Positions 8,295 to 37,045 of a stretch of DNA of 64,000 nt are shown piece after piece (positions within the stretch are counted from its first letter, which is position 1; every line of letters starts with the position of its first letter). The notes under the pieces were generated by a model. It worked only from the letters and a program-made list of their open reading frames with translations. It did not search any database and was not told where the DNA came from. Position numbers and translations under genes: made by a program. The stretch is from Patescibacteria group bacterium (GTDB lineage: Bacteria > Patescibacteriota > Minisyncoccia > Phycocordibacterales > JAKAEA01). The stretch spans positions 381,857-445,856 of the forward strand of contig JAZKCY010000001.1 of the NCBI GenBank assembly GCA_040387855.1, given 5' to 3'.

Positions 8295-8366
8295 CTCCTC
8301 CGGCAGGGATCGAACCTGCGACCAATCGCTTAACAGGCGACTGCTCTACCGCTGAGCTACAGAGGA
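8295..8366 (-). tRNA. tRNA-Asn (anticodon GUU)
   Basis: Hand-folded cloverleaf. Acceptor stem UCCUCUG/CGGAGGA with one G-U pair. D stem GCUC/GAGC. Anticodon loop CUGUUAA. T arm GCAGG-UUCGAUC-CCUGC. Discriminator G. No CCA encoded. Confidence 0.85.
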
Positions 8367-8544
8367 ATATGCTTCGTTCTCTCGAGCTTGCGCTCGGGGA
8401 ACGAACTTTTAGCATCATAGCAAAAAAACAGAAAATGTAAATATTGGACTTTATATAGATTTTGGGTGCGTATAAAACAGACTGATCGTACGTCTGATAT
8501 ACTATAAGGGTAGGTGTAATAATTGGTATAATTTAACTATATAT

Positions 8545-8955: not shown

Positions 8956-8968
8956 AATCTAAGTAAAA

Positions 8969-13896: not shown

Positions 13897-13926
13897 GAAT
13901 TTGTGGTTAGTTCTAATGCTCAACAT

Positions 13927-13944
13927 TATAGCATATATGCTATA
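13927..13944. promoter_or_regulatory. 18-bp perfect palindrome TATAGCATATATGCTATA overlapping a TATAAT -10 box upstream of HTH-murA (candidate operator)
   Basis: Perfect dyad seen directly, 30 nt upstream of the murA start. On the coding strand it reads ttgcgc-N16-tataat, with the palindrome spanning the spacer and the -10. Confidence 0.5.
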
Positions 13945-13990
13945 TGGCGCAAATATACCGATTTCCATAACTATAGTATTCTGTATACAT

Positions 13991-14335
13991 ATGCCACCTA
14001 TGAAATTTGAAGGAGCTTCGTATGATGATGAAGGGAACAAACAAGAAGATACTTCTAAAGACAAGAAAATTGAACCAGGAGAGTATCCCATGTCTACATT
14101 TGAAGAAGTAACAGATGTTATGGTTCATAGATGCAGTCCTATAATATTACAGACTCGACATATTCATCCAAACATAATAGTAGAACAGATAAAACTCGCT
14201 GGAACCTATTCTACAAAACAAATTGTCGAGATACTTAACAATTCAACGTCATTAGATTGGAATATGAAACCAGGTTTTTATAAAGCCTTGGCGTTAGAAA
14301 TTGCCGAAAGAGTAAGAAGAAATAAGCTTAGATAA
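13991..14335 (+). CDS. Hypothetical protein
   Basis: 114-aa ORF starting MPPMKFEGASYDDEGN. The longer track ORF (13895..) overlaps the murA start region, so I used the internal start. No recognisable domain. Confidence 0.35.
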   Translation: MPPMKFEGASYDDEGNKQEDTSKDKKIEPGEYPMSTFEEVTDVMVHRCSPIILQTRHIHPNIIVEQIKLAGTYSTKQIVEILNNSTSLDWNMKPGFYKALALEIAERVRRNKLR

Positions 14336-14376: not shown

Positions 14377-15390
14377 ATGTCTATGTTTTCTAAAAAGCTC
14401 GGGATTGATTTAGGTACCGCAAATACATTGGTGTTTTTACCGGGTAAAGGGATTGTGTTAAATGAACCATCAGTAGTTGCTATTTCTGAGCAAGATAATC
14501 GGATTTTGGCAGTAGGAGCCGATGCAAAACAAATGATTGGCCGAACTCCAGACAATATTATTGCGTATCGACCAATGAAAGACGGTGTTATTGCTGATTA
14601 CCGAGTTACTGAAGCAATGCTTAGATACTATATTAATAAAGCATTAGGTAAGTGGAGTTTTTTTAAGCCTGAAGTAATGGTTTCAGTGCCAGCCGGAGTT
14701 ACATCTACAGAACGACGCGCTGTTATTGAAGCTGCAATTAAGGCTGGAGCAAAAAATGCTTATGTAGTGAAAGAGCCTATTCTTGCTGCTATCGGAGCTG
14801 GTATTTCTATTCAAGAACCTGTAGGTCGCATGATTGTTGATATTGGAGGAGGTACAACAGACGTTGCTGTGATATCTCTTGGTGGTATTGTGTCGTGTAC
14901 ATCAGTCAAAGTTGCTGGAAATAAAGTGGATACTGCAATCATAGACTATATAAAGAAGACATTTAACCTTTCTATTGGAGATAAAACCGCTGAGGATATC
15001 AAAATTCAGATTGGATCGGCTATTCCGCTTGAAGAGGAACTCTCAATGACTATCAAGGGGCGTGATTTTGTAACTGGCCTTCCACGATCTGTTGAAATTA
15101 AAACTAATGAAATCGTAAAGTGTTTGGCAAAAGAACTTCGGGAGATGATTAATGCTATTAAGACTGTATTGCAGGATACTCCACCAGAACTTGCTTCAGA
15201 TATTATTGACCAGGGAATTATTATGACGGGTGGATCATCACAATTGAGAAATCTCCCAGAACTTGTATTCCGAAGAACTGGTGTTAAAGCCACTCTTGCT
15301 GACGATGCACTCTTTTGTGTTGCAAAAGGAACTGGTATTGCACTCGAACATCTTGATACTTACAAGAAGAGTATTATATCTAAGCGATAA
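14377..15390 (+). CDS. mreB: Rod-shape/actin-like protein MreB (paralog 1)
   Basis: GIDLGTANTLV N-terminal actin-fold phosphate-1 motif. Conserved throughout. Confidence 0.85.
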   Translation: MSMFSKKLGIDLGTANTLVFLPGKGIVLNEPSVVAISEQDNRILAVGADAKQMIGRTPDNIIAYRPMKDGVIADYRVTEAMLRYYINKALGKWSFFKPEVMVSVPAGVTSTERRAVIEAAIKAGAKNAYVVKEPILAAIGAGISIQEPVGRMIVDIGGGTTDVAVISLGGIVSCTSVKVAGNKVDTAIIDYIKKTFNLSIGDKTAEDIKIQIGSAIPLEEELSMTIKGRDFVTGLPRSVEIKTNEIVKCLAKELREMINAIKTVLQDTPPELASDIIDQGIIMTGGSSQLRNLPELVFRRTGVKATLADDALFCVAKGTGIALEHLDTYKKSIISKR

Positions 15391-17821: not shown

Positions 17822-18475
17822 ATGGGTATTTCAGAAATTAAAAAAATAGTAGCACTGACAACAATCCTTTCAGTTGCATCGGTTGGATTGTATGTTGCAG
17901 CTGAACCACAGATTTCAAGCGCACAGGCAACTGCAGATGATACTGTTATTATTACACTTAACGTTGATGCGGGTATCTCTATCACAAGTCCTGCAGACTC
18001 TTCAATGAGTACAAACTTGGGTGTTTCTGTAAATAAGGCTATTGCTACAACCACTTGGAATGTTAAAACTAATAACAATCTTGGATATACTCTTGCTGTA
18101 AAAGCATCTCAGGATCCTGCAATGCAGTCAGCTGGTGATGAAGTGTTAGATTACACTGAATCTGTAGGAGGTACACCTGAGACATGGTCTGTAGGTGCAA
18201 GTACCGCAGAATTCGGATATTCAGCATTCGGAACCGATGTTCCAACTGGTACATGGGGAACAGGCTCACAGTGTTCTTCAACTGTTAATGCAAACTCAAC
18301 TACTCTTAAGTACGTAGGTTTTAGTACATCTGATAAAACTATTGCAACACGATCTTCAACTACAACTCCTTCTGGCATTGATTCTACAGTATGCTATGCT
18401 GTAGAACAAAATGGTTTCTATATTCCATCTGGAACATATACAGCTACCATTACAGCAACTGCGACCACCCTCTAA
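17822..18475 (+). CDS. Secreted Ser/Thr-rich surface protein, WxL-domain-like
   Basis: Signal peptide. TTWNVKTNNNLGYTLAVKAS resembles the first WxL motif. Clear paralog of 19491..20237. Confidence 0.5.
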   Translation: MGISEIKKIVALTTILSVASVGLYVAAEPQISSAQATADDTVIITLNVDAGISITSPADSSMSTNLGVSVNKAIATTTWNVKTNNNLGYTLAVKASQDPAMQSAGDEVLDYTESVGGTPETWSVGASTAEFGYSAFGTDVPTGTWGTGSQCSSTVNANSTTLKYVGFSTSDKTIATRSSTTTPSGIDSTVCYAVEQNGFYIPSGTYTATITATATTL

Positions 18476-18498
18476 TTTAACTTGGTTACATAAATAAA

Positions 18499-19482
18499 AT
18501 GCCTAAGGTTGGAAAGAAAGCACAAATATTAGCGAGCTGGACTACTTTAATCCTACTTATCGCTATTTTACTGCCTCTTACTCCTGCCCAAGCTTTTGAG
18601 GTTTCAAACCAGAATGTAGAAGATAAGAACGACTTTGTTCTTGAACCGGGTAAAGTAGAACTATTCCTTAATCCTGGTGAAGAAGCAACAAAAGCTGTAA
18701 TAGTTACAAGCCGTATTCGAGAGACAACTACGTTTAAAATTGAAATCGAAGATTTCATTGGTTCGCGAGATGCAAATCAACCTGTAATTCTATTGGGTAA
18801 TGATAAAAGCCCGTATTCAATCAAAGATTCTATTGTTCCGGAAATTTCAGAGTTTACCTTGGAGTTTGGTCAACGAATCGCTATTCCTGTAAAAATTACA
18901 GTTCCTGAAGCAACACAACCAGGTGGATTTTATGCATCAGTACTTGTTTCAAGTCAGGCACGAGAAACTCCAGCAACAGCAGCCCAAGGACGTACACGAG
19001 TTGTATCACGAGTCGGATCATTGATGTTTATTCGTGTAAACGGTGATGCTAACGAAAGTGGAGCGGTAGAAGATTTTCGAATTGCGGGCGAAAAGAAGTC
19101 TGTGTATGAAAAAGGACCCTTCACATTTCAGGTGCTTTTCAATAACACAGGTAATGTGCACCTTGTACCGTATGGAACAGTCACAATCAAAAATACACTA
19201 GGTAAGTCAATTTCAACACTGCCTCTTGATGCTTATTTCTCTCTACCTAACTCATTGCGTCATAGAGAAGTGCAATGGTCATCTGGATTCCTTTTTGGAC
19301 GTTATAAAGCAGAATTAGACCTCAACCGTGGGTATGGTGGAACTATGGACCATAAAGAAATTACTTTCTGGGTACTCCCATGGAAAATCGTAGTTGCTGT
19401 ACTCTTTGGATTCCTTCTTATTTCTTCAATACTAGTTTATATTCTTCGAAATTTTGAATTTAAGAAAAAAGGAGCTAAGTAA
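18499..19482 (+). CDS. Cell-surface protein with N-terminal signal peptide and C-terminal TM anchor (DUF916/DUF3324-like architecture)
   Basis: 327 aa. The signal peptide ends AQA. Beta-rich body. C-terminal hydrophobic helix followed by KKKGAK. Confidence 0.45.
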   Translation: MPKVGKKAQILASWTTLILLIAILLPLTPAQAFEVSNQNVEDKNDFVLEPGKVELFLNPGEEATKAVIVTSRIRETTTFKIEIEDFIGSRDANQPVILLGNDKSPYSIKDSIVPEISEFTLEFGQRIAIPVKITVPEATQPGGFYASVLVSSQARETPATAAQGRTRVVSRVGSLMFIRVNGDANESGAVEDFRIAGEKKSVYEKGPFTFQVLFNNTGNVHLVPYGTVTIKNTLGKSISTLPLDAYFSLPNSLRHREVQWSSGFLFGRYKAELDLNRGYGGTMDHKEITFWVLPWKIVVAVLFGFLLISSILVYILRNFEFKKKGAK

Positions 19483-19490
19483 TTTAAGCT

Positions 19491-20237
19491 GTGAAAGGTA
19501 CTAAGCATTCAAAATTTTTATATCTCAATGCTTTTTTACCGGTTCTCTTTGTGTTTGCTGTGATGGGAAGTACAAACTATAAAATGGAAAGTGATACCGT
19601 AAACCCAGCTGGAAATCTTTCTACAAGTACAAATTACTCGCTCGGTGATACATTGGGAGAAGTTGGAACTGGTACTTCTACAAGTGCGACCTATGGGATG
19701 AATGCTGGTTTCTGGCAAATGCAGAGTGGATATATTTCTATCAGCGTAGAAGCTGATCAGGCAATGAGTTCTATTGGTGGCTTTTCTGGTGCTATTAGTA
19801 CATCCACATCCGTATGGACAGTTATTACTGATAACACTGCTGGGTATTCTTTGTTTGTACGGGCAGCTACAAGCCCTGCCCTTAAGAGTCCAGAAGATGC
19901 ATTCTTTTCAGATTATGATTTAGGAGGAGGAGCACCTCATTATGATTTTTCTGCTGATTCAAACTTATCTGTTTTTGGATTTACACCTGAGGGTGAAGAT
20001 ATTACTGATTTCTATAAGGACAATGGACTTGAGTGTAACAGTGGGGGATCAGATACTGTAGATAAATGTTGGGCTGGTTTTACTACAACAGATCAGGAAG
20101 TGTCACAAAGAGCAACATCAAATCATCCGTCTGGAACTCAAACAACATTAAAATATCGAGCAGAAGTGGGATCAAATAAACTTCAAGATGCTGGTTCATA
20201 TTCAGCTGAAATTACAGTAACAGCACTTATGCTTTAA
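19491..20237 (+). CDS. Secreted Ser/Thr-rich surface protein, WxL-domain-like (paralog 2)
   Basis: GTG start and signal peptide. SVWTVITDNTAGYSLFVRAATSPALKSPED is parallel to NLGYTLAVKASQDPAMQSAGDE in the 17822 product. Confidence 0.5.
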   Translation: MKGTKHSKFLYLNAFLPVLFVFAVMGSTNYKMESDTVNPAGNLSTSTNYSLGDTLGEVGTGTSTSATYGMNAGFWQMQSGYISISVEADQAMSSIGGFSGAISTSTSVWTVITDNTAGYSLFVRAATSPALKSPEDAFFSDYDLGGGAPHYDFSADSNLSVFGFTPEGEDITDFYKDNGLECNSGGSDTVDKCWAGFTTTDQEVSQRATSNHPSGTQTTLKYRAEVGSNKLQDAGSYSAEITVTALML

Positions 20238-20238
20238 T

Positions 20239-21609
20239 ATGTTAATTCGTATTTTACTAAGCACAATCATACTCCTCACTCCAGCACTTAGCTTTGCTGC
20301 GACAAGTAGCAATGGTGTTGACGTGAATATGTTTATACTGGGGTGTAATGATAACGCAATTTGTGAACCACTTTCTGGCGAAGATGTTAATTCTTGTCCA
20401 TTGGACTGTACGGTAATAACGCCACCTCCACCACCGCCTTCTAATTTTTCTGGACCTGCAGCACCGTATTCTGGTGGAGGATATTTTTCACCAGCAACGT
20501 ATACTTCTTTTGAAATAACTCCAGGTGATAATTATGCTGTTTTCACGTGGACAACAGACAACAACACTATCAATACATTTTCATGGGGAGAAACTCCTGA
20601 TTACGAATTTGGAAGTATGTCTGAAGTTACATATCACAAAAACCATTCGGTAAAAATCCAAGGTTTAAAACCAGGTGTCGATTATTATTATAAAATTACA
20701 ACGCAAGATGCTTCAGGAGCAACTCTTGTGAAAGATGGAACATATCGACTTCCTGTTTCAGAAGATCACACACCACCTTCAAATCCTAGTGCTTTTTATG
20801 CACAACAACGACAACAAGATGTCTTGCTAACATGGAAGAATCCAAAAGAATTGGATTTTAAAAATGTATTGATAGTAAGATCACCATACGGCTATCCGCA
20901 GAGTGGGTTGGAAGGAAAAATCGTATACGAAGGAAAAGGGAACTATGTTCTTGATTCTGATACTCAAATTGATGCTACCTATTACTACACAATTTTTGCA
21001 TATGATGAAGTATCAAACAGATCGTCTGGAGCAATAGCACGAATAAAAATTGTAGCCCCTGGATCACCAATACCTTCAAATTCAACAGTACCTCCGATTA
21101 CAGGAGAGGTTACTGCAAGTAGTACATTATCGCTTATCGATTTTGATTTTAGTCAAAGGGGGAGAGGTATTTCTTTTCTGCAAGATGTTGTACCGGTAAA
21201 TTCTGCTGATGCAATTACTGTGTCTCTTGCTCGTGAAAAAGTACCAAAAAATGTTAAATATATTGTGCTAACACTAAAAGATGAGGTTCCATGGAATTCA
21301 TACCTTTTCTCAGATAATTTTGATAAGACAACAAGTGAAACTTCAATTGCGGCATTAGAACGAGTTGGGGTGGTTGCTTTTGAACTAAATATTGCATATC
21401 AAGGTTCAGATTCTGTTACAAAAATTGAAGGATATTTTAAAACAACATCACTACAACCTCAGCTTGGGGAAAAGCGAGTGAGTTTTTGGGAAAATTTTCT
21501 TAAATTAACACATATCTATCGGGGTATTTTGCTAATAGTGCTTTTGATCATTATAATCATAATTCTGGGGATAATTCGGCACAAAAAAGACAAGCGAGCC
21601 ATGCTATAA
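20239..21609 (+). CDS. Secreted protein with two fibronectin type III domains and a C-terminal TM anchor
   Basis: Signal peptide and Pro-rich linker. Two FN3 units (FTWTTD...GLKPGVDYYYKI and LLTWKNPKE...ATYYYTIFAYD). C-terminal hydrophobic stretch plus RHKKDKR. Confidence 0.6.
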   Translation: MLIRILLSTIILLTPALSFAATSSNGVDVNMFILGCNDNAICEPLSGEDVNSCPLDCTVITPPPPPPSNFSGPAAPYSGGGYFSPATYTSFEITPGDNYAVFTWTTDNNTINTFSWGETPDYEFGSMSEVTYHKNHSVKIQGLKPGVDYYYKITTQDASGATLVKDGTYRLPVSEDHTPPSNPSAFYAQQRQQDVLLTWKNPKELDFKNVLIVRSPYGYPQSGLEGKIVYEGKGNYVLDSDTQIDATYYYTIFAYDEVSNRSSGAIARIKIVAPGSPIPSNSTVPPITGEVTASSTLSLIDFDFSQRGRGISFLQDVVPVNSADAITVSLAREKVPKNVKYIVLTLKDEVPWNSYLFSDNFDKTTSETSIAALERVGVVAFELNIAYQGSDSVTKIEGYFKTTSLQPQLGEKRVSFWENFLKLTHIYRGILLIVLLIIIIIILGIIRHKKDKRAML

Positions 21610-21621: not shown

Positions 21622-24600
21622 ATGGGCACTATTTTTACGAAAAAACTTTTCAGTTCTTATGCTCTTTCTCTCTTCATTTTAGTTTCATTTATTGTAACTT
21701 CATGTTTTGGAATTGTGCTTCCAGAAGTTGCATCTGCTGCTCTCAACAAACAAATAAATTATCAAGGAAAACTTACAAATGCTTCTAATGTTGCAGTAGC
21801 CAACGGTACCTATGAAATGGTTTTTAATCTTTATACAGTTTCTTCTGGAGGATCTCCAATTTGGACTGAAACACGAAGTGGTGGAAGTGAGGTGACTGTT
21901 ACCAACGGACTTTTCAGTGTGATGCTTGGAGAAGTCGCAACACTTGATGCCGTAAATTTTAATCAGACATTGTACCTCGGAGTAACCATCGAAGCTGATG
22001 CAGAAATGTCACCTCGAAAAAAATTGGGAGTTGTGCCTGGTGCAATTGATTCAGAACGACTTGGAGGATTAAACAGTTCACAATTTTTACGAGCTGATGC
22101 AGCAAATGCAACATCAACTGCTTCTACATATCTTACTGTCACACAAAACGGAGCAGGAAAAATTGCAGAATTTTTTGGACCAAGTTCAGCATCAGTACTT
22201 TCAATTACAGCTGATGGAAAAGTGGGGATTGGCACAACAACTCCGTATGCAAAACTTTCGGTAGCGGGGGCAATTGTCGGTGAATATTTTGTTGGAACTT
22301 CAACTGCGACCTCTACACTTGGTGGAGGTCTTTCTGCAACTCGTTTCCAAGCAACAGCAACATCAACAATGGCAGGCATTAATCTTGCTTCTGGATGTTA
22401 TGCCATTGCAGGAGCATGTATTGGTGGATCAAGTCTGTTGGGGACTACAGGTCAGGTTGCATATTTTAGTGGTACCAATACTGCTGTAGGTACTTCATCA
22501 CTTTCGTTTGATAATGCTGGTAATGTGAGTATCGCTAAAAACTTGTTTGGAGGTATTTGGACTATTGACCAAAATGGTATTTTTTATGGTACTTCAACAA
22601 ATTCTCTTGGGGCATCGTATGGTAATTACACAGGATTTGCTGTTGCAGTAAATAGCGGAGGATATGTAATTGATGATCAGGGTAACACATTGTCAACATT
22701 ATTTGCTGATGAAGCAGGTAATTCACTTACTGCAAATTATGCAGCAAACAACTTTGGACAATTCTTTACCGGAAATGGTTTTACGTTAGATGCAAATAAT
22801 CAAAAAATCACAAGTATTGGTTTGGGATCTACATCAGCTCCTTCACTTTCTTTCAATAGTGATTCAAATACCGGTATCTTTTCTCCGGGTGCAGATAGTA
22901 TTGCATTCTCAATTGGTGGAGCAGAGCGAGTAACTATTGGATCAACAGGTAACTTTGGAATTGGAACAACATCACCATACGCAAAACTTTCAGTAGCAGG
23001 TGAAGTTGTTGCCTCACATTTTACTGCAACTTCGACAACCGCAACATCAACATTCGCAAATGGTTTAAATATTACTGGTGGATGTTATGCCGTAGCAGGA
23101 GTCTGTCTTTCATCAGGTTCAAGTCTTACTGGTACAACTGGCCAGCTCGCATATTTTAGTGGGACAAATACTGCGATTGGAACATCATCAATTTTCCTAG
23201 CAACAAATCAAAATGTGGGAATCGGTTCTACTACACCTGGTTCAAAACTTTCAGTAAACGGAACAGTTGCTGCTGATTCATTTAATGTTCTTACCAATAA
23301 TGAAGGTTATAAAATTAGAGGTACAACTATTTTGAATGCATCATCTTCAATTTCAAGTCTTACAATTGGTGTTAATGCGGGTGCAAATCTTGGAGGCAAC
23401 TCTTCTTCAAACGTTGCGATCGGATCATTTGCAATGAATTCTACATTGAGCGGAGATTCAAACATTGCCCTTGGATACAGTTCTTTGTACACAAATGAAA
23501 CAGGAAATAATAACATCGCTATTGGTTATTCTGCTTTAGATGCATTGCTTGCAAATTCAGATAACGTTGCGCTTGGTACAGAAGCAGGTAAAAATACTAC
23601 AGGTTCAAACAACCTTTTCTTAGGTCATGGAGCAGGATATAACGGCGGAACAAATGCGATTACTTCTGGCTCAAATAATATTCTCATTGGATACAATGTA
23701 ACTGGTACATCATCAACAGCAACAAACTTTTTAAATATAGGTAATGCACTCTATGGAAACTTATCAAATGGAAATATTGGAATTGGTTCAACATCGCCAA
23801 ACTCAAAGCTTTCTATTGTAAGCCAAAATGCTGTTGGTTTAGAGATTTCAGCTGGTGATGCTAATTCTTATACAGGACTTTCTCTTGGTAGACTTGCAGC
23901 TGATGCAAATTTCTCAATCGCTGGTACTGGAGGACAATGGGCTCAGGATGCTACATCAGGAGATTTAATTATACGAACACAAACTACTGATATGTTCTTT
24001 GATACGAATGGCGGAGTGGGCACCTCAGCATTTACTATTCTTTCAGGTAATGGAAATGTAGGAATTGGAACAACCTCACCTTATGCAAAACTTTCTGTAG
24101 CTGGAACTGTAGTTGGACAGAATTTTGTTGCGACATCAACAACTGCAACATCAACATTTGCTGGTGGTTTAGTTGCAGGAGGGACTACTGGTCTGATTGT
24201 ATTACAAAATGGAAATGTAGGAATTGGTACAACCACTCCTAATCAAGGCTCAGCTGGAGGAGGAGCCGCAAAAGTTTTAAGCTTCAGTGATCCTTTAAAT
24301 ACAGTATTAAGAGTTACTGGGGGAGATGTTAATGCTGTATTTCAAACTCTAAATAATGATGCTGTATATGTTGGACCTACATCGGCGCATTCCCTTAATT
24401 TGGTTACAGAAGGATCATCAAAATTAACCATATTAAGTGGAGGAAATGTTGGAATCGGTACTACAACACCATATGCAAAACTTTCAGTTGCAGGAACTAT
24501 TGTAGGAGCAAATTTTGTTGGTACCACAACTGCAACCTCTACACTTGGTGGTGGATTATCAGCAACTCGTTTTCAAGCGACAGCAACATCAACAATGGCA

Positions 24601-26688
24601 GGTATTGATCTTACTTCTGGATGTTATGCCATTGCAGGAACATGTCTTTCAACTGGTGGATCAAGTCAATGGACAACTGCCGGAAATAATATTCACTTTA
24701 ATACAGGTAATGTAGGTATCGGAACAACATCTCCATTATCAGCACTAGCTCTTGGTACATCTACAACCGCCGCGGGAACAGCTGGTATTTATGAGTTTTT
24801 AACACTCAATAGTGCTTCTGGTGCAACACAGTTTGGAAATCAAATGTATGTAGTAAATGCACCTACAGGATCTGCAAATACTATGGTCGCTCAAATGATT
24901 CGAGTTGAAGATAGTACTGCACTCACAAATACCGTGCGAGGTCTTGAAGTACAAGCACACAGAGGTACAAATACATTGGGAGAAAATACTGGAGTTTCAG
25001 CATTCGGAAGAACATTCGGTATTAAGGGAGTAACTATTGGTGATGCCGGTGGGACACTTGCACCTGCTGGAGTCTACGGAGAAACTCGAGGAACAACACA
25101 GGGTAACGCATTCCGAGGATATTCAAATACTATTACTTCATCAAACCTTTCATATTTGTATCAAGAAACATCCGCATTTACTGGTGATGTATTTCGAGCC
25201 GATGTAGGAAATGGAGCTGGATCATTTAGTGGAAATCTTTTGAGATTGCAAGTTGCCGGAGTAAATAAATTTAATGTAAGTGCACATGGGACAACTACCA
25301 TTGGGGATGGAGTGAATTTTGCAGGTCTTGTGGTCTCAAATGGAGCCCTTACTGTAAGTGGTACTGCTACCTCAACATTCTCAAATGGAATAAATATAGC
25401 AGGAGGATGTTTTGCTGTTTCAGGAAGTTGTTTGTCAACAGGTGGTACAAGTCTTATCGGAACGACTGGTCAGTTTGCGTACTTTAGTGACACAAATACT
25501 GCAGTTGGTACTTCATCATTATTCTTGGCAACAAATGGTAATGTAGGAATTGGAACTACCTCACCATATGCAAAGCTTTCTGTTGTTGGTGAAATAGTAG
25601 CTTCACACTTTACTGGTACCACAACAGCAACCTCAACATTGGGAGGAGGTCTTTCTGCAACTCGTTTCCAAGCAACAGCAACCTCAACGATGGCAGGTAT
25701 AAATTTAACTGGTGGATGTTTTTCTATTTCAGGAACATGTCTTTCAGCAGGTGGTGGCTCTGGAACGGTTGGAGCTGGAACTACAGGATATGTGCCATTT
25801 TATGCAGCAGGTGGAACAACACTTACTGCAACATCTTCACTATTTATAGCTGCAAATGGAAATATTGGAATTAACACTGTAAGTCCAACAGCAGATCGAC
25901 TTCACATTGGGGCAGATAGTTCATGGACTGGTCTTCGGGTAGATGCTGGAACTGCAGGAACAAGTGGTGCGTATATTGATTTTTATGATCATCTTGGATC
26001 AAAGGCCGGAGGATTCGTGTATGACGAACTTGATGGTGACTCATTAAAGTTTAAAACATATTTTGGAAGTAATGATATAAAATTCATCACAAATAATAGT
26101 GATGAGCGAATGACTATTTCGGGTGCTAATGGATATGTTGGTATAGGAACCACATCACCTTATGCCGCACTCTCAGTAGCCGGTGCATCTGGAGTTGTTG
26201 CTAATATTTTTAATGCGACATCAACTACTGCAACATCAACATTTGCCGGAGGTCTTTCAATTGCAACCAACGGATTGGTATATGATCGTTCAACGGGATA
26301 TGTGGGTGTGGGAACTGCATTGGCAAAACGAAAGCTTGATGTAACTGATGCTTCAAATCCTCAAATGCGTTTGAGTCAAACAAACAACTCTGTATTTTCT
26401 GATTTTAAGGTTGCAGCAACAACTGGAGATCTTACTGTAAGTATAAATACTACAGCTGAAAATGTTATATTCAATCAGCCATCCGGTACAACAGGAGCAA
26501 ACGTATGGGCTTGTCAGGGAGACGCATGTCCTACTGCATATCTAAATCTTGCTGATGGAGGTAACTTTGTAGCAGAAAAAGCATACTACTTTGGAAACGG
26601 ATTTAAGATCTCAACTGTAGATGCATCTACAACAGCTGTCTACGACACTACAAATACAATCATCCTACAATTCGACGAAGCACCGTAA
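21622..26688 (+). CDS. Giant (1688 aa) secreted Gly/Thr/Ser-rich repeat protein (tail-fibre-like / beta-helical adhesin-like)
   Basis: Signal peptide. At least 7 copies of a GNVGIGTT(S/T)PYAKLSVAG module. Five copies of a GC(Y/F)A(I/V)(A/S)G(T/A/V)C Cys pair. About 120-bp repeats of ~85-90% identity at 22283, 24506 and 25615. Confidence 0.6.
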   Translation: MGTIFTKKLFSSYALSLFILVSFIVTSCFGIVLPEVASAALNKQINYQGKLTNASNVAVANGTYEMVFNLYTVSSGGSPIWTETRSGGSEVTVTNGLFSVMLGEVATLDAVNFNQTLYLGVTIEADAEMSPRKKLGVVPGAIDSERLGGLNSSQFLRADAANATSTASTYLTVTQNGAGKIAEFFGPSSASVLSITADGKVGIGTTTPYAKLSVAGAIVGEYFVGTSTATSTLGGGLSATRFQATATSTMAGINLASGCYAIAGACIGGSSLLGTTGQVAYFSGTNTAVGTSSLSFDNAGNVSIAKNLFGGIWTIDQNGIFYGTSTNSLGASYGNYTGFAVAVNSGGYVIDDQGNTLSTLFADEAGNSLTANYAANNFGQFFTGNGFTLDANNQKITSIGLGSTSAPSLSFNSDSNTGIFSPGADSIAFSIGGAERVTIGSTGNFGIGTTSPYAKLSVAGEVVASHFTATSTTATSTFANGLNITGGCYAVAGVCLSSGSSLTGTTGQLAYFSGTNTAIGTSSIFLATNQNVGIGSTTPGSKLSVNGTVAADSFNVLTNNEGYKIRGTTILNASSSISSLTIGVNAGANLGGNSSSNVAIGSFAMNSTLSGDSNIALGYSSLYTNETGNNNIAIGYSALDALLANSDNVALGTEAGKNTTGSNNLFLGHGAGYNGGTNAITSGSNNILIGYNVTGTSSTATNFLNIGNALYGNLSNGNIGIGSTSPNSKLSIVSQNAVGLEISAGDANSYTGLSLGRLAADANFSIAGTGGQWAQDATSGDLIIRTQTTDMFFDTNGGVGTSAFTILSGNGNVGIGTTSPYAKLSVAGTVVGQNFVATSTTATSTFAGGLVAGGTTGLIVLQNGNVGIGTTTPNQGSAGGGAAKVLSFSDPLNTVLRVTGGDVNAVFQTLNNDAVYVGPTSAHSLNLVTEGSSKLTILSGGNVGIGTTTPYAKLSVAGTIVGANFVGTTTATSTLGGGLSATRFQATATSTMAGIDLTSGCYAIAGTCLSTGGSSQWTTAGNNIHFNTGNVGIGTTSPLSALALGTSTTAAGTAGIYEFLTLNSASGATQFGNQMYVVNAPTGSANTMVAQMIRVEDSTALTNTVRGLEVQAHRGTNTLGENTGVSAFGRTFGIKGVTIGDAGGTLAPAGVYGETRGTTQGNAFRGYSNTITSSNLSYLYQETSAFTGDVFRADVGNGAGSFSGNLLRLQVAGVNKFNVSAHGTTTIGDGVNFAGLVVSNGALTVSGTATSTFSNGINIAGGCFAVSGSCLSTGGTSLIGTTGQFAYFSDTNTAVGTSSLFLATNGNVGIGTTSPYAKLSVVGEIVASHFTGTTTATSTLGGGLSATRFQATATSTMAGINLTGGCFSISGTCLSAGGGSGTVGAGTTGYVPFYAAGGTTLTATSSLFIAANGNIGINTVSPTADRLHIGADSSWTGLRVDAGTAGTSGAYIDFYDHLGSKAGGFVYDELDGDSLKFKTYFGSNDIKFITNNSDERMTISGANGYVGIGTTSPYAALSVAGASGVVANIFNATSTTATSTFAGGLSIATNGLVYDRSTGYVGVGTALAKRKLDVTDASNPQMRLSQTNNSVFSDFKVAATTGDLTVSINTTAENVIFNQPSGTTGANVWACQGDACPTAYLNLADGGNFVAEKAYYFGNGFKISTVDASTTAVYDTTNTIILQFDEAP

Positions 26689-26698
26689 AAATACTGCT

Positions 26699-27460
26699 AT
26701 GATAATTTCCGAACTGAAAGATTTATTAAAAAATATTGTACGATGGGCATTTGCATTCATAGCTTTGTCTACTTTTTTCTTTCTATTTTCTACACAAACG
26801 GTGACGATAAAAGGCAGGGAAGTGCCAGTGCCTTGGATGACTGATTCATCATATACGATTCAGTTTTTTGATACATTACAGCGTACATTGATACCAAGTG
26901 AAGTAGATCTTATTGTTACAAATCCATTCGATGCTTTTTTTATAGAGGTTAAATTATCTTTATTTTTAGCCTTTATTGTATTGTCGCCTTTTCTTTTGTG
27001 GGGAATACTACGATACCTTTCGCCAGCATTAAAACAGTCAGAAAGAAAATCATTATATAAAGTTGTATTACCATCTACTATTTTGTTTTTTAGCGGATGT
27101 CTATTTGCATATGCATACATTATTCCTTCTACGATAAAAATAATGTATGCACATGCGCCCAATATCAAAGCAATTCAGTACTTCAATGTTAATGATTTTA
27201 TTTCATTAGCACTCATGATGATGGTTGCTACGGGAATAATGTTTGTTCTTCCTGTGTGCATGGTTATCTCAAGTTATCTTGGGATAGTTAACCCCGTTAT
27301 TTGGAAACAGTATTGGCGCCAGGCAATTTTTGGATGTCTGTTAGTTACAGCAGTAATCACACCCGATGGTAGTGGAATTACCATGGCAATGCTTGCGATT
27401 CCACTCTGTTTACTCTATATAGTAGGCCTTTTTATCAGCTGGCGGTATAAAACTAGTTAG
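26699..27460 (+). CDS. tatC: Twin-arginine translocase subunit TatC
   Basis: Six TM helices with a TatC-like pattern (LSPFLLWGILRYLSPAL, ILFFSGCLFAYAYIIP). ATG at 26699 sits 11 nt after the giant gene's stop. Confidence 0.75.
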   Translation: MIISELKDLLKNIVRWAFAFIALSTFFFLFSTQTVTIKGREVPVPWMTDSSYTIQFFDTLQRTLIPSEVDLIVTNPFDAFFIEVKLSLFLAFIVLSPFLLWGILRYLSPALKQSERKSLYKVVLPSTILFFSGCLFAYAYIIPSTIKIMYAHAPNIKAIQYFNVNDFISLALMMMVATGIMFVLPVCMVISSYLGIVNPVIWKQYWRQAIFGCLLVTAVITPDGSGITMAMLAIPLCLLYIVGLFISWRYKTS

Positions 27461-29545: not shown

Positions 29546-29938
29546 ATGGCTATAAATGTATCGCGTAATCGAATTGACTTTAATGATATTCGTGCGGAGT
29601 CTGCTGAATTTAGAGACAGTGCAGAAAGTGTAAATGCAATTGGTAGTGCGTCAGGTGCTGAGGCAATTGATTATTCACTGGGCAATGTCGTAACAGCAAC
29701 AACAACTGGTGCAACTGTCTGGTCTGTGACAAATCCACCTGCATCAGGAAAAGCTGGGAGTTTTACCCTTATTCTTACAAACGGCGGTAGCCAGACTCAA
29801 ACATGGATGAGTGGTACAAAATGGCCAAGTGGAGCAGCGCCAACACTTACTTCGTCAGGGATAGATATACTTACCTTTTTTACGGTTGATGCTGGTACTA
29901 CATGGTATGGAGTGTTGGCAATGAGTGCTATGGCTTAA
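29546..29938 (+). CDS. Hypothetical Thr/Gly-rich protein
   Basis: 130-aa ORF, tightly spaced within the operon. No domain recognised. Confidence 0.35.
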   Translation: MAINVSRNRIDFNDIRAESAEFRDSAESVNAIGSASGAEAIDYSLGNVVTATTTGATVWSVTNPPASGKAGSFTLILTNGGSQTQTWMSGTKWPSGAAPTLTSSGIDILTFFTVDAGTTWYGVLAMSAMA

Positions 29939-29979
29939 TATTTTTTGATTATTGCACTATGTTTGGACTAGGAGCAAAA

Positions 29980-32900
29980 ATGAGAGCAATTCAACAAACG
30001 GTTGTAGCTATTATTGATAATAGTTATCTTTTTGGTTGGGGGAAAAATACTTCCGGTCAAATTGGTAATAGCTCATTAACGAGTCAATCAAGTCCTGTTG
30101 GTCTAGGTACAACTTCTGATTGGAAAATGCTCTCTGGAGCATACACATTTTCGGCGGGAATCAAGACAAATGGGACACTATGGACATGGGGCGCTGGGAT
30201 ATTCGGAACTTTGGGGGATAATACAGATTCAGTTGCAAAATCAAGTCCAATTCAAGTTGGAACACTCAGTGATTGGGATACTGTTAGTACAGCAAAATTT
30301 CATGCTTTAGCTCGTAAAACAAATGGAACGATCTGGGGATGGGGGTTTAATGGTGGTGGTCAACTTGGCCAAAATAATATTACAGATAGATCAAGCCCAG
30401 TTCAGATTGGGACTTTAGGTACTTGGACCCATATTTTTACCGGTGGTCAAATATCAGGTGCGCGAAAAAGTGATGGAACACTGTGGTCATGGGGCCGAAA
30501 CACCTATGGGGCACTTGGAATCAATGCTGCAGGAGATAGATCAAGTCCTATTCAAATTGGAACTTTGACAACATGGGATCATATGTCTTTCGGATACCGA
30601 ACTGGATTGGCAAGAAAAACCGATGGTACCATTTGGGGATGGGGCAATAACAATCTTGGACAAATTGGTAACAGTACGGTTGTTAACAGATCAAGCCCTG
30701 GACAAATCGGTACTCTTACAACCTGGAGTAGTATTCATGCAGGGAACTTACATGGTATAGGCCGAAGGTCAGATGGTACATTGTGGGGTTGGGGTTGGGC
30801 TGGAAAAGTTGGAGATAATACTGCAACCAATAAATCAAGTCCAGTACAAATTGGAACATTAAGCTCATGGCTACATGTCGCTACTGGTTATGACCACACA
30901 CTGGCAAAAAGATCAGATGGAACTATTTGGAGTTGGGGATATGCTACATACGGTCGTTTGGGGGATAATGCCACTACTGATAGATCGAGTCCTGTGCAAA
31001 TTGGAACACTAACAGAATGGGATTCCATTTTTGCAGGGAGCAGTTCTCATTCTTCGTTTGCTTTAAAAAGATATAATCTAGGTATGTTTGCATGGGGAGT
31101 AGGTTCCCTCGGTCAAATAGGAAATAATGATGTAAGTCAACAAGATAGTCCGTTACAAGTGGGTACACTCACTTCATGGGAGGGTGTAGCTGTTGGTGCT
31201 AGTACCGTGCATGCATGGAAATCAGATGGAACACTGTGGACATGGGGTAGAAACTCATACGGTCGTTTGGGAGATAACACAACCACGAACAGATCAAGTC
31301 CAGTCCAAATTGGTACCCTTAATGTATGGAAAATGGCAGCTTCAGGTACAGGCCACTCAAGTGCTGTAAGAACTAACGGAACATTGTGGTCATGGGGATC
31401 TGGTGCAAACGGAGAAATGGGAGATAACACAGCAATTTCTAAATCAAGTCCAGTACAAGTAGGAACACTCTCAATTTGGGCAGAAACGTCCGCAGGAAGT
31501 ACATTCACCGTTGCGCGTCGAACAAATAATACTATTTGGTCATGGGGTAGTAACTTGTATGGTCGTTTGGGTCAAAGCACTACTACAAATAGATCTAGTC
31601 CAGTGCAAATTGGAACATTAAGTAACTGGTCTGGTATTTCTGCAGGAGGCCAACATGCACTAGGAATAAAAACTGACGGTGGTATTTGGGCATGGGGTCT
31701 GAACACCTCTGGACAAATGGGAGATAATACTGCTGTTACAAAATCAAGTCCTGTTCGTATTGGGACTCTTACAAACTGGAAAGGTATTTCAGCGGGTGCA
31801 TCTCACAATGTTGCGTGGAAAACTGACGGATCATTATGGGCATGGGGAATAAATACAAACGGAAGATTGGGAGATAATACTACTACAACCAGATCAAGTC
31901 CTGTGCGTATTGGGACTTTATCTGATTGGGCTTCAGCTTCTGCCCAACTAGAGCATACTATTGCTCGAAAGACAGACGGTACGCTATGGGCCTGGGGAAA
32001 GGGAGACTATGGTCAGCTTGGAGATGGAATTGCACGACTTAAGAACACACCACTTCAAATCGGTACGCTAACAAACTGGGGAACTGTATCTATGGGAGCC
32101 TCACACACCGTTGCATGGAAAACAAATAATACTATTTGGGGATGGGGAATTGGGGGCCAAGTGGGAGACAATACCGCTGTTACAAGATCAAGCCCCGTAC
32201 AAATTGGAACGCTATCTACATGGCAATCTATTGATACTGGTGATTCACATACTGTAGCTATAAAGACTGACGGTACAATGTGGGCATGGGGAGCAAACAC
32301 GTCAGGCCAAGTAGGAGACAATACGAATGTTACAAAATCAAGTCCTGTACAGATTGGAACTTTAAACACATGGGCAAGTGTGTCGGCTGGAAATATTCAC
32401 TCTATTGCTCGAAAAACAGATAGTAGTATTTGGTCATGGGGACTTGGAAGTGTGGGTGCACTTGGAGATAATACAGCCACTACCAAATCAAGCCCGGTAC
32501 GAATTGGTACACTTAATACCTGGGCAAGTGTGACTGCTGGTGGAAACCACTCTCATGCAATAAAAGCTGATGGATCATTGTGGTCATGGGGTTACAATTT
32601 TTATGGGCAATTAGGCGATAGTTCAAATGTGGCTAAATCAAGTCCTGTTCGAGTTGGTACGCTCAATGATTGGTCAATTGTATCAGCAGGAATTCAGCAT
32701 TCATTAGCAATCAAAACAAACGGGACATTGTGGGCATGGGGATTTGGAACTTCCGGACAGCTTGGAGATAATACGGGTGGAACCTTCTCAAGTCCAATTC
32801 AAATTGGTACGCTCACTACTTGGGCTGGGGTGTCTGCAGGTGCAGAACACTCTCTTGGATGGAAAGCTGATGGAACTTTGTGGGCCTGGGGCTACAATGC

Positions 32901-33174
32901 ATCCGGACAATTGGGAGACGGTACATTTACTCAATATCTTAGTCCTATTCAAGTTGGTACGGTTTCTACATGGAGTACTGCTTCAGCTGGACCAAACCAC
33001 AGTGGTGCTGTGAGAGCCGATGGGACATTATGGATGTGGGGAACTCGTCTTAATGGTAGAATCGGAGATAACAACATGCCGGGTAAATCGAGCCCAATTA
33101 AAATAGGTACCATGAACGATTGGCGTACATTGGGTAACGGTCCAAATGGACTGATGAGTATTTCAATTAAATAA
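29980..33174 (+). CDS. RCC1/BLIP-II-type beta-propeller repeat protein (about 20 repeats), no signal peptide
   Basis: About 50-aa repeats (GTLWxWGxNxxGQLGDNTxxxxSSPVQIGTLxxW) occur at regular intervals. ATG at 29980 is preceded by AGGAG. The track's longer version starts at 29902. Confidence 0.7.
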   Translation: MRAIQQTVVAIIDNSYLFGWGKNTSGQIGNSSLTSQSSPVGLGTTSDWKMLSGAYTFSAGIKTNGTLWTWGAGIFGTLGDNTDSVAKSSPIQVGTLSDWDTVSTAKFHALARKTNGTIWGWGFNGGGQLGQNNITDRSSPVQIGTLGTWTHIFTGGQISGARKSDGTLWSWGRNTYGALGINAAGDRSSPIQIGTLTTWDHMSFGYRTGLARKTDGTIWGWGNNNLGQIGNSTVVNRSSPGQIGTLTTWSSIHAGNLHGIGRRSDGTLWGWGWAGKVGDNTATNKSSPVQIGTLSSWLHVATGYDHTLAKRSDGTIWSWGYATYGRLGDNATTDRSSPVQIGTLTEWDSIFAGSSSHSSFALKRYNLGMFAWGVGSLGQIGNNDVSQQDSPLQVGTLTSWEGVAVGASTVHAWKSDGTLWTWGRNSYGRLGDNTTTNRSSPVQIGTLNVWKMAASGTGHSSAVRTNGTLWSWGSGANGEMGDNTAISKSSPVQVGTLSIWAETSAGSTFTVARRTNNTIWSWGSNLYGRLGQSTTTNRSSPVQIGTLSNWSGISAGGQHALGIKTDGGIWAWGLNTSGQMGDNTAVTKSSPVRIGTLTNWKGISAGASHNVAWKTDGSLWAWGINTNGRLGDNTTTTRSSPVRIGTLSDWASASAQLEHTIARKTDGTLWAWGKGDYGQLGDGIARLKNTPLQIGTLTNWGTVSMGASHTVAWKTNNTIWGWGIGGQVGDNTAVTRSSPVQIGTLSTWQSIDTGDSHTVAIKTDGTMWAWGANTSGQVGDNTNVTKSSPVQIGTLNTWASVSAGNIHSIARKTDSSIWSWGLGSVGALGDNTATTKSSPVRIGTLNTWASVTAGGNHSHAIKADGSLWSWGYNFYGQLGDSSNVAKSSPVRVGTLNDWSIVSAGIQHSLAIKTNGTLWAWGFGTSGQLGDNTGGTFSSPIQIGTLTTWAGVSAGAEHSLGWKADGTLWAWGYNASGQLGDGTFTQYLSPIQVGTVSTWSTASAGPNHSGAVRADGTLWMWGTRLNGRIGDNNMPGKSSPIKIGTMNDWRTLGNGPNGLMSISIK

Positions 33175-33180: not shown

Positions 33181-35124
33181 ATGGCAACCCTTACTGAAAT
33201 TCTAGAAATATCTGGAACATTAGAAAAAGCAGAAGAAATAGCTCGGCAATTAGTAGTGCAAGATCCAACATATATGTTGGATCTTCAGCTTATATTGAGC
33301 GCTCGTGGTAAAGTTGCAGAATCTAAAAAAATTATTGAAGATCTGAGTAATAAGTTTCCCAATGATCATAGAATAGCTTTCAACCAAGGATGGCACGTAT
33401 TGAATGAAGGTGATTTACAGCGGGGAATGGAACTCATAGATCGAGGAAGAAATGTGGGGGTATTTGGTTCACCCGCACTTCAAACAGATAAGCCCTTATG
33501 GGATGGGAAAAATGCCAAAGGAAAAACTATTTTACTTCGATGTGAAGGAGGATTGGGAGATGAAATTCTTAATATTCGTTTTGCTAAAGATATAGCAGAG
33601 AGAGGTGGAACAGTTATAGTAGCTTGTGATAAAGGTTTGCAAAGCGTGTTCTCTCGAGTTTCAGGCGTCGCCAAAACTATTTCTTTAGATCACATTCAAG
33701 ATGAGTACTTTGATGCATGGGTACCTGCTATGAGCGCTGTAAGAGTGTGTGGTCACACTTATGAAACACTTCCAAGTGAAGCTTATATTACTGCTTTACC
33801 AGAGAAAATTGCAGAATGGAATAAGACTGTTAATGCTGATAATGGAGTGTTGAAAGTTGGAATACGCTGGTCTGGCAATGCAGAATTTGAACATGAACAA
33901 ATGCGAAGATTCCCTTTCAAGCATATCTTGGATGTATTTGAAACTCCCAATGCTAAATTTTTTAGTTTACAACGTGATTCGGATTTGAAAGTGTTACCTC
34001 CTGAAGTTGTCGATTTAAGTGGTCTTATGAATACATGGGAAGATACAGCAGGAGTTATTGCAAACTTAGATTTAGTAATAACTTCATGTACAAGTGTTGC
34101 TCATATGGCGGCAGCAATGGGCAAAGAAACATGGATTATTGTTCCACTAATGCCATATTATACGTGGGCTATGCCTGGGAATAAAACTCCATGGTATAAA
34201 AGCGTGACGTTGTATAGACAAGAATCAGACACAAACTGGGAAGCCTCATTTATAAAGGTACGACAAGCATTAGAAGAATCGACAACTCAAGTAATACGTA
34301 CTAGTATTGATCCAATGCAAAATCACACAAAAAAGACGCTCCATTTCGTAGCAGGACTACCGCGTTCTGGTAGTACTATGCTCATTAGTTTGCTTGCCCA
34401 AAATCCTACTATTTTCGGTGCACCCGTTTCAGGTTTGGCTGGTATTGTAAACGGAGTAAATACTAATTGGGATAAAATAGAATTTCATAAGGAAGTTCCT
34501 AATGAAGAAGCAAAGATGTATACCTTGCGAGCTATTTTAGATAGCTATCATGCTGCAACATCTAAACCAATTATCCTAGATAAAGAGCGTCATTGGATTC
34601 GTTATATTTTATTGCTTGAAAAGTTATTAGACAGAAAAGTGAAAGTAATTGTTCCTGTTCGTCCTATTGCAGAAATACTCACTTCATTTGAAGTATTGCG
34701 ACAAAAGAATCCATTAACTCTCACAATGGTGGATGAAGTACTTGGTCCGAAATCTACATTATCTACACGTTGTGATTACTTTATGAATGAAGAAGGTCCT
34801 GTAGGGAGTTGTATCAATTATACTCGTGATGCTGTCATTTCCGGCTTGAGTGATCGTTTATTATTTGTGGATTACAATAAATTTATTGCTAATCCCGAGC
34901 GTGATCTAAAACGAATATATAGTTTCTTAGAAATCCCTTATTTTGAGCATGATTTGCATAACATAAAGCAGCTTACTATGAGTGATGATTCAATATGGAA
35001 GTATCCAGGATTACATGATGTTCGATCTGTCGTATCAAAAATCTCTGCTGATCCTATAAGTGTCCTTGGTCCTGAGCTTGTAGCAAAGTTTAGTCAGGGT
35101 GAACCATGGGAAAATTGGACATAA
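33181..35124 (+). CDS. Tri-partite enzyme: TPR-like N-terminus, GT9 (heptosyltransferase-like) glycosyltransferase, and a C-terminal sulfotransferase domain
   Basis: GT9 motifs KTILLRCEGGLGDEI and DLVITSCTSVAHMAAAMGKETWII. The C-terminus has a PAPS-binding-type LPRSGSTML P-loop (5'-PSB) and a downstream basic motif. Confidence 0.6.
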   Translation: MATLTEILEISGTLEKAEEIARQLVVQDPTYMLDLQLILSARGKVAESKKIIEDLSNKFPNDHRIAFNQGWHVLNEGDLQRGMELIDRGRNVGVFGSPALQTDKPLWDGKNAKGKTILLRCEGGLGDEILNIRFAKDIAERGGTVIVACDKGLQSVFSRVSGVAKTISLDHIQDEYFDAWVPAMSAVRVCGHTYETLPSEAYITALPEKIAEWNKTVNADNGVLKVGIRWSGNAEFEHEQMRRFPFKHILDVFETPNAKFFSLQRDSDLKVLPPEVVDLSGLMNTWEDTAGVIANLDLVITSCTSVAHMAAAMGKETWIIVPLMPYYTWAMPGNKTPWYKSVTLYRQESDTNWEASFIKVRQALEESTTQVIRTSIDPMQNHTKKTLHFVAGLPRSGSTMLISLLAQNPTIFGAPVSGLAGIVNGVNTNWDKIEFHKEVPNEEAKMYTLRAILDSYHAATSKPIILDKERHWIRYILLLEKLLDRKVKVIVPVRPIAEILTSFEVLRQKNPLTLTMVDEVLGPKSTLSTRCDYFMNEEGPVGSCINYTRDAVISGLSDRLLFVDYNKFIANPERDLKRIYSFLEIPYFEHDLHNIKQLTMSDDSIWKYPGLHDVRSVVSKISADPISVLGPELVAKFSQGEPWENWT

Positions 35125-35139
35125 TCCAATACGTTAAGT

Positions 35140-36459: not shown

Positions 36460-36463
36460 CACT

Positions 36464-37033
36464 ATGAAATTAAATCTTGGCTGTGGCTTCAATAAACTGG
36501 ATGGATATATAAATGTAGATAATTCGGCTGTATGTAAGCCTGATCAGGTGTTTGATATAGAATCGACCCCATGGCCTTGGCAAGATAGTTCGATTGACGA
36601 GATCAGATTAGATCATGTTTTGGAGCACATTGGTGTGGACCCAAAAACATATATTTCAGTATGGAAAGAAATATGGCGCGTATCAAAACCCAATGCTCAG
36701 ATTTTTATTCGAGTTCCACACTGGAGGCATGAAAACTTTGCACATGATCCTACACATGTACGTCCTATTACTCCTGTTGGTATTGCCATGTTTGATCAGC
36801 TACGTAACAGGGAAGACGAAAAGCGTGGAGGTCAAGAAACAAAGCTTGGACTTATGTATGCAATAGATGTTGCTATAGAACGTGTTGAATATGTGTTTGT
36901 CCCCGAAATACAGCAAGCTTTAGAAAAGAAATTTATATCTCAAGAAAAAGCTTCTTCACTTATGGAACATGAAAATAATGTATGTCAGGAAATTAAAATC
37001 GGTGTGCGAGTTATGAAGCCTTGTCGAGGCTAG
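36464..37033 (+). CDS. Class I SAM-dependent methyltransferase (Methyltransf_11-like)
   Basis: MKLNLGCGFNKLDGYINVD is the glycine-rich SAM-binding motif I. Confidence 0.6.
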   Translation: MKLNLGCGFNKLDGYINVDNSAVCKPDQVFDIESTPWPWQDSSIDEIRLDHVLEHIGVDPKTYISVWKEIWRVSKPNAQIFIRVPHWRHENFAHDPTHVRPITPVGIAMFDQLRNREDEKRGGQETKLGLMYAIDVAIERVEYVFVPEIQQALEKKFISQEKASSLMEHENNVCQEIKIGVRVMKPCRG

Positions 37034-37045
37034 CATCGATAAACT

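Follow-up and report, generated by a model that had tools for sequence, protein, structure and literature searches.

Fibre proteins of Bdellovibrio bacteriovorus with structures of the 8OND type have been described as 'mosaic adhesive trimeric' (MAT) fibres, among them Bd2133, Bd1334 and Bd3182 (Caulton et al. 2024, PMC10769870). By definition, a MAT protein has a signal peptide, a conserved β-rich domain of about 130 residues right behind it, an intertwined trimeric β-helical fibre with 'capping loops' and a variable tip, which is an S74 chaperone/protease domain or another domain. The capping loops are aligned in Supplementary Fig. 18 of that paper (NVGIGTTTTTEKLN, NVGIGATSPSAKLQ and others) and have the consensus NVGIGTTxPxAKL. 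Patescibacteria are missing from its table of MAT proteins. In this report, a gene with a comparable layout is described from contig JAZKCY010000001.1 of a Patescibacteria group bacterium. It occupies positions 21622..26688 of the analysed stretch of 64,000 nucleotides (the window), on the forward strand like all features below unless a minus sign is given, and it encodes a secreted fibre protein of 1688 amino acids. The product is probably a homotrimeric surface fibre of the MAT and phage-tail-fibre kind, encoded last in a Pam-like pilus operon of a Paceibacteria-type Patescibacterium and likely serving host attachment.

The second system for comparison is a pilus of bacteria of the candidate phyla radiation (CPR). 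The pam operon encodes the tip pilin PamT, further pilins, membrane-anchored chaperones and the anchor PamR, which combines FnIII and a transmembrane helix (Troman et al. 2026 preprint, 10.64898/2026.03.03.709456). The same preprint reports a 'tail fibre-like protein' that is consistently co-localized with pam operons. There, the fibre gene is only a node of the neighbourhood network, and the Pam pilins belong mainly to Saccharimonadia and Microgenomatia. Beyond this one-line mention, no description of MAT-type fibres in Patescibacteria was found in the literature that was searched. Little is known of how epibiotic bacteria of ultra-small size locate their hosts and stay attached to them (PMC12206443).

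The open reading frame (ORF) had been read in an earlier note, made from the letters alone, as that of a secreted protein of 1688 residues. The ORF was confirmed and the signal peptide is supported by inspection. The N-terminus (residues 1–39, 21622..21738) looks like a Sec signal peptide, with K7K8, hydrophobic residues 9–33 and A37-S38-A39, followed by A40. AAGG precedes the ATG of the gene. The protein is identical to the NCBI entry 'MAG: hypothetical protein V4519_02275 [Patescibacteria group bacterium]', encoded on a contig of 981,549 bp, and 58% of its residues are G, T, A, S or N. No Pfam or NCBIfam model matches any part of it, whether the whole sequence or the N-terminal domain (N-domain), the NxAxG block, the central domain and the tip were used as queries.

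The only relatives among all PDB sequences are Bdellovibrio bacteriovorus fibre proteins (phmmer). Residues 808–986 match Bd2133 (8OND, E=3.2e-5) and are aligned to its two trimeric β-helix subdomains. A second segment matches 8OND, 8OL4/8ONF and 8OJN/8ONB/8ONC. The Bd2133 match lies in the shaft of the fibre (residues 176–1558, 22147..26295), which is punctuated by a recurring core motif, GxVGIGTTxPxxKL. This motif matches the MAT capping-loop consensus. With the pattern [VFI]G[IV][GN][TS]..P...L, 12 copies are counted, starting at 22222, 22954, 23215, 23776, 24058, 24217, 24448, 24712, 25543, 25864, 26137 and 26302, the last of which opens the tip. The motif is absent from every other six-frame ORF of at least 80 residues in the window. 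Homology to these segments and analogy with the MAT fibres suggest that the fibre protein is a trimer.

The earlier note had likened the repeated modules to those of phage tail fibres and β-helical adhesins. This likeness is borne out by matches to tail-fibre families of PHROG (phrog_9942, E=2.7e-20), by the MAT fibres as sole PDB relatives and by the capping-loop motif. With the phage tail fibres and tailspikes that end in S74 (K1F endosialidase, T5 L-shaped tail fibre; PF13884), the fibre protein shares a motif of the capping-loop type and the logic of a triple β-helix, and many of its close homologues end in PF13884. Unlike them, it is encoded outside any phage, has a secretion signal and lacks S74: PF13884 (Peptidase_S74) was found neither in the whole protein nor in its C-terminal 134 residues. 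Its similarity to phage genes for tail fibres and endosialidases is short and local, with patches of 50–150 residues that make up 3–9% of the protein. Trimeric autotransporter adhesins of the YadA type are a further point of comparison. The NxAxGxxA repeats at residues 555–715 resemble their head repeats, and the JGI names of two relatives (P0058, P0130) include 'autotransporter adhesin'. In contrast to these adhesins, the fibre protein has no C-terminal membrane-anchor barrel and a different N-terminal domain. Pfam families, those of trimeric autotransporter adhesins included, were detected neither in the whole protein (E<=0.1) nor in residues 555–715 (E<=10). Since the anchor domain is missing, identity as a trimeric autotransporter was rejected.

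The signal peptide is followed by a conserved β-rich N-domain (residues 40–175, 21739..22146; INYQGKLT...NGLFSVMLG...EMSPRK..VPGA), which is defined by structure prediction, homologues and a hidden Markov model (HMM). In the AlphaFold2 (AF2) model, based on a 26-row alignment, the predicted local distance difference test (pLDDT) score is above 89 at residues 45–135 and the fold is all β. A fold search against the PDB returned nothing at E<0.001, just generic immunoglobulin-like sandwiches; the MAT N-domain also has no fold relative in the PDB (PMC10769870). Against BFVD, the search gave weak matches to phage proteins with low template-modelling scores, some of them S74 or tail-fibre-like. Among the best 119 homologues, the set in which all sharing of parts was counted, 101 have this domain. 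To obtain N-termini from Bdellovibrio, one genome per species was scanned with a fragment of Bd2133. Fibre genes were found in Bdellovibrio, Bacteriovorax, Nitrospirae, Planctomycetes, Chlorobi, Verrucomicrobia, Omnitrophota, Saccharibacteria, Parcubacteria and others, and 14 of the scanned fibre ORFs open with an xxYQGxL... domain. The HMM of the patescibacterial N-domain detects a fibre of Nitrospirae (L002, 2e-32), two of Bdellovibrio (L005, 1.4e-7; L013, 8e-7; each in two collinear pieces flanking an insertion) and those of Chlorobi, Cloacimonadota and others. With hhalign, the N-domain and the Bdellovibrio sequences are collinear over 131 columns (E=0.006). The homology to Bdellovibrio MAT-like proteins is distant but consistent. 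By analogy with these, the N-domain is presumed to be the cell-proximal anchor.

The remaining parts of the protein form a mosaic. More than 1,326 homologues were found with lengths of 1,059–2,952 residues; the named ones are nearly all from Patescibacteria or Paceibacterota. Short repeats of the type NxA(I/L)GxxAL (residues 555–715, 23284..23766) are common to 61 of the 119 homologues and resemble Pelagibacter phage tail fibres locally. This block has no Pfam or PDB match. A conserved central domain (residues 1040–1240, 24739..25341; VRGLEVQ..RGTNT.GENT...) is common to 62 of the 119 and has no Pfam match. The C-terminal tip domain (residues 1559–1688, 26296..26685) contains C1631-x4-C1636, is not the S74 chaperone domain and has few relatives. 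These are three homologues and two short database entries (P0045, P0052, P0066, P0121, P0122), in which the domain is always C-terminal. No PDB or Pfam relative of the tip was found, the search giving one sub-threshold TRL match; its presumed fold is drawn from homology and analogy. Syntenic orthologues are collinear with the fibre protein only over the first 230–300 residues (55–62% identity). Orthologues at the same operon position have 1688–2122 residues and differ in module number and C-terminal domain. The distribution of the parts among homologues and the divergence of the orthologues thus indicate a constant base, a variable shaft and swapped tips. Over evolutionary time, the modules have apparently been duplicated, homogenized within genes and shuffled between genes.

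Three copies of a long module are embedded in the shaft. Each consists of a capping loop, ATSTLGGGL, a gene-specific insert of 16 residues (SATRFQATATSTMAGI) and a C-x6-C pair. Copy 1 comprises residues 197–266 (22210..22419), copy 2 residues 939–1008 (24436..24645) and copy 3 residues 1304–1373 (25531..25740). The amino-acid identity between them is 76–86%. The earlier note had counted the module at least seven times; this holds for the core motif with its 12 copies, but the full module of about 70 residues (GNVGIGTT...SGCYAIAGxC) is found only three times and the other copies are shorter or partial versions. The insert is common to all three long copies and is matched in only one of the 119 homologues (P0043). 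The module copies of another homologue, P0003, likewise have a common variant of their own. These observations indicate intragenic duplication or gene conversion in the course of evolution.

The five cysteine pairs of the CxxxxGxC type that had been noted before are indeed present as C-x6-C pairs (residues 259/266, 488/495, 1001/1008, 1263/1270 and 1366/1373). Those at 488–495 (23083..23106) and 1263–1270 (25408..25431) belong to a short module. A sixth pair, C-x4-C (1631/1636), is located in the C-terminal domain. The sole unpaired cysteine is C28 within the signal peptide. Every other cysteine has a close partner, as would be expected of an extracellular protein. The module ...ATSTFxNGINLxxGC(F/Y)A(I/V)xGxC... 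was found in 83 copies across 37 of 120 proteins, and A3, G24, C25 and C32 of its alignment are invariant. A profile of the module, which also picks up cysteine-free ATSTF modules, matches 1,843 representative proteins (E<=1e-3), and some of these contain as many as 34 matching stretches. The named proteins are from Patescibacteria or Paceibacterota. None of the 80 fibre ORFs of the genome scan, which come from many phyla and include several Patescibacteria, yielded the C-x6-C module. The module is family-wide. Its role may be to staple a turn by a disulfide, to clamp chains to one another or to bind a metal on the three-fold axis. The giant relatives P0125 (5047 residues), P0150 (7634 residues) and P0128 (6358 residues) match the profile of the module (ATSTF with or without C-x6-C) as many as 34 times.

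Directly upstream of the fibre gene, a module of four genes (17822..21609) encodes secreted or membrane proteins. The first is a pilin-like protein of 217 residues (17822–18475), which is secreted or membrane-bound and a paralogue of the third (E=1e-20). The second (327 residues, 18499–19482) has a chaperone-like architecture with a signal peptide and a C-terminal transmembrane helix. The third (248 residues, 19491–20237) is a distant homologue of PamT (NCBIfam NF058579, 'CPR-type pilus protein PamT', E=4e-9), and its orthologues match the PamT family at E=4e-8 to 3e-12. The fourth (456 residues, 20239–21609) has a PamR-like architecture with fn3 (E=4e-4) and a C-terminal transmembrane helix. 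The fibre gene starts 12 nucleotides past this gene, and the gap is at most 12 nucleotides in four genomes. Synteny was inspected in seven homologous loci (L082–L088). The order pilin-like gene, gene for signal peptide and transmembrane helix, PamT-like gene, fn3 and transmembrane gene, fibre gene is identical in L083, L084 and L086. In L085 the pilus module is clustered with fibre genes, and L082 has part of it. By its position, the fibre gene closes a conserved, putative Pam-like pilus operon. As in the pam operons of the preprint, a tail-fibre-like gene stands beside a putative pilus operon, here with a distant PamT homologue and genes of chaperone-like and PamR-like architecture. Unlike there, the named relatives are Paceibacterota and the pilus genes are very divergent; the two fibre families are compared by description only.

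Most likely, the fibre protein would be exported by its Sec signal peptide and held at the cell surface by the β-sandwich-like N-domain, in analogy to the Bdellovibrio MATs. The shaft of about 1,380 residues would consist of β-helix segments between the 12 capping loops (GxVGIGTTxPxxKL) and would also hold five family-specific C-x6-C modules, the NxAxG block and the conserved central domain. The rare tip of 130 residues is the likely ligand-binding end. From its last position in the conserved Pam-like operon, the fibre is most likely made together with the pilus, possibly by co-transcription, and would be part of an apparatus for contacting and holding the host. The likeness to the Bdellovibrio MATs comprises the signal peptide followed by a conserved β-rich N-domain, the capping loops and a variable tip, with or without S74. 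On the other hand, those proteins have about 1000 residues and come from a diderm predator, whereas the fibre protein has 1688 and comes from a monoderm-type lineage of ultra-small epibionts. It also differs by its C-x6-C modules, a tip without PDB or Pfam relative and the linkage to a Pam-like pilus operon. The gene belongs to a very large patescibacterial family whose proteins are built like the prey-recognition fibres of Bdellovibrio, and it is linked genetically to a pilus system that is specific to CPR bacteria and was described only recently. Should the variable tips bind molecules on the host surface, the family would supply testable candidates for what determines the host range of lineages that only metagenomes have revealed.

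Several observations weigh against this interpretation. The AF2 model of residues 1020–1688 has a mean pLDDT of only 49 (monomer, 18-row alignment), and the first fibre module beside the N-domain is below 50, also modelled as a monomer. Low confidence in the adjoining fibre segment is expected for a single chain of an intertwined oligomer. The HMM matches of the N-domain to Bdellovibrio are weak (15–18 bits) and come from MAT-like genes of strains other than HD100, the source of the published proteins; BLASTP of the N-domain against Bdellovibrio N-termini gave nothing. The PamT-like protein reaches 36 bits, compared to a family cut-off of 240. The other three upstream genes are Pam-like by architecture only, with no sequence-family match for the chaperone-like and PamR-like ones. 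Furthermore, two of the seven homologous loci (L087, L088) have no pilus module within 8 kb.

Other functions were considered for the same gene. The fibre could be a physical component of the Pam-like pilus, either a tip adhesin or a protein tethered by the PamR-like fn3 and transmembrane protein, instead of an independent fibre. The tight spacing to the gene of the latter in four genomes (<=12 nucleotides) and the co-localization reported for pam operons (10.64898/2026.03.03.709456) agree with this. However, the same N-domain and architecture occur in phyla without reported Pam pili (Bdellovibrio, Nitrospirae, Planctomycetes), L087 and L088 have the fibre without the module, and a donor-strand or acceptor feature was not identified in the fibre protein. 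A pilus component is considered unlikely. A more elaborate proposal for CPR bacteria of the Paceibacteria type is a composite host-capture organelle, in which a tail-fibre-like trimeric adhesin is made with a chaperone-assembled Pam-like pilus and physically coupled to it, swapped tips set the host range and the family-specific C-x6-C modules rigidify the giant fibres as inter-chain disulfide or metal clamps. This is doubtful and has to be regarded as speculative; if it is true, the host specificity of uncultured CPR lineages could be read from this gene family in their genomes. The very large size, the composition rich in G, T, A, S and N (58%), the secretion and the abundance of the family in Patescibacteria would also suit an S-layer or another envelope scaffold, i.e. 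a wall component with repeats for lattice formation rather than adhesion. A scaffold is at odds with the specific homology to trimeric adhesins whose fibre segments have been solved and with the layout of a constant N-domain and a variable tip; no S-layer family is matched, and this explanation is very improbable. The PHROG matches and the local matches to phage tail fibres could finally point to a fibre of a prophage or tailocin left in the chromosome. Family searches of the 64-kb window gave no genes for a capsid, tail, baseplate, integrase or terminase. The absence of phage structural genes nearby, already remarked in the earlier note, was confirmed, and the neighbours are housekeeping and cell-wall genes (mreB, frr, rseP, priA, genes of the dcw cluster, glycosyltransferases). 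In addition, the phage matches cover only 3–9% of the protein, it has its own signal peptide and the gene is syntenic with the pilus module in several genomes. Since the neighbouring genes are not phage genes, a prophage tail fibre was rejected; its probability is close to nil. A host-attachment fibre of the MAT kind is the preferred reading.

The repeats within the gene raise a separate alternative. According to the earlier note, recombination between them could vary the length of a surface fibre or switch its phase. In a contingency locus of this kind, long repeats would drive frequent RecA-dependent in-frame deletions and duplications, leading to length variants of the fibre or to its switching off. 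The long copies are indeed spaced in frame (2226 and 1095 nucleotides), share exact runs of up to 38, 26 and 23 nucleotides and have a gene-specific insert in common that indicates past intragenic conversion or duplication; furthermore, the lengths of the orthologues differ. The DNA repeat search of the fibre gene gave a 57-nucleotide unit in ten copies and a 207-nucleotide unit in three. Over 210 nucleotides, however, the pairwise identity is only 82% (copies 1 and 2), 75% and 76% (copy 3 with these two), and the 38-nucleotide run is shared by copies 1 and 3 (at 22324). An identity of 85–90% had been claimed for segments of about 120 base pairs; the best 120-nucleotide windows reach 87% for one pair (22283 and 24509) and 79% and 78% for the other two. 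Where two copies have an identical residue, they also agree in its codon in 36/59, 27/52 and 32/55 cases for the three pairs, compared to 25.9, 23.2 and 24.3 expected from codon usage. The excess is only modest and synonymous sites are largely randomized. Thus, the long copies are old and alike mainly through constraint at the protein level. The antisense ORFs at 21963–22379 (−) and 24342–24527 (−) had been described as near-identical in translation. The first exists as described, but its resemblance to the second spans only about 31 residues; both are by-products of the repeat on the sense strand.

Simple-sequence tracts are absent from the fibre gene, where TRF gives just two trivial arrays, and neither inverted repeats nor invertible elements were found in the window. 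The RCC1-repeat gene of the same window (29902–33174) has 60–83% DNA identity between its repeats, comparable to the fibre gene. In this genome, repeated protein modules come with DNA similarity of this level. No close relative of the fibre protein was present in the collections searched: its 90% cluster has one member, the tip query returned four proteins and the metagenome scan one unrelated locus. With no simple-sequence tracts, no inverted repeats, diverged synonymous sites and exact runs of at most 38 nucleotides, phase variation is unsupported as a present-day mechanism, and a contingency locus is improbable. The repeats are best read as ordinary structural building blocks of this fibre class and not as a special genetic switch. 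A diversity-generating retroelement acting on the tip was rejected as well, since the repeat search of the whole window revealed no pair of template and variable repeat for the tip. No reverse transcriptase was found among the ORFs in the family searches, which did not cover smaller ORFs and most of positions 1–10,000 and 54,300–64,000.

A promoter-like site is located at 21529–21557 within the 3' end of the fn3 and transmembrane gene (TTGCTA-17-TATAAT, 10/12 matches). It lies about 65 nucleotides upstream of the start codon of the fibre gene and may be an internal promoter. Downstream, the TatC ORF as listed (26621–27460) overlaps the fibre gene by 68 nucleotides, and its Pfam match begins at residue 32. 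The ATG at 26700, 12 nucleotides past the stop codon of the fibre gene, gives MIISELKDLL... and is the probable start of TatC. A true overlap of tatC and the fibre gene was rejected as an artefact of ORF calling, the TatC start most likely being at 26700. In none of the seven other loci (L082–L088) is tatC found downstream of the fibre gene. In L083–L086 and L088 the fibre cluster lies downstream of obg and gatB at a distance of a few genes; in three of these loci, a small gene of the MerR-type helix-turn-helix (HTH) class stands in between. In L082, obg and gatB are also upstream; in the present window the cluster follows frr and rseP instead.

The RCC1-repeat gene encodes a protein of 1090 residues with 18 RCC1 repeats (PF00415, E=8.5e-168) and has intragenic DNA repeats with a period of 150 nucleotides. 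The genes behind it encode a protein with a sulfotransferase domain and several glycosyltransferases (33181–38580). Two MreB paralogues are present (14377–15390 and 40974–42041), in which a stretch of 101 nucleotides near the 5' ends is 75% identical; MreC is encoded at 42016–42822. An enzyme of the EPSP-synthase fold (MurA/AroA type, PF00275) at 12337–14091 (−) has an N-terminal HTH domain of the Cro/C1 type, which is an unusual fusion. At 45349–47250, a class II aminoacyl-tRNA synthetase (D/K/N type) is extended by a C-terminal DUF2000 domain. Finally, the N-terminal region of a GDSL lipase/acylhydrolase (58405–59973) matches the SKICH (E=1e-13) and HECW_N (E=1e-8) families, which are typical of eukaryotes, although no single stretch passed alone.

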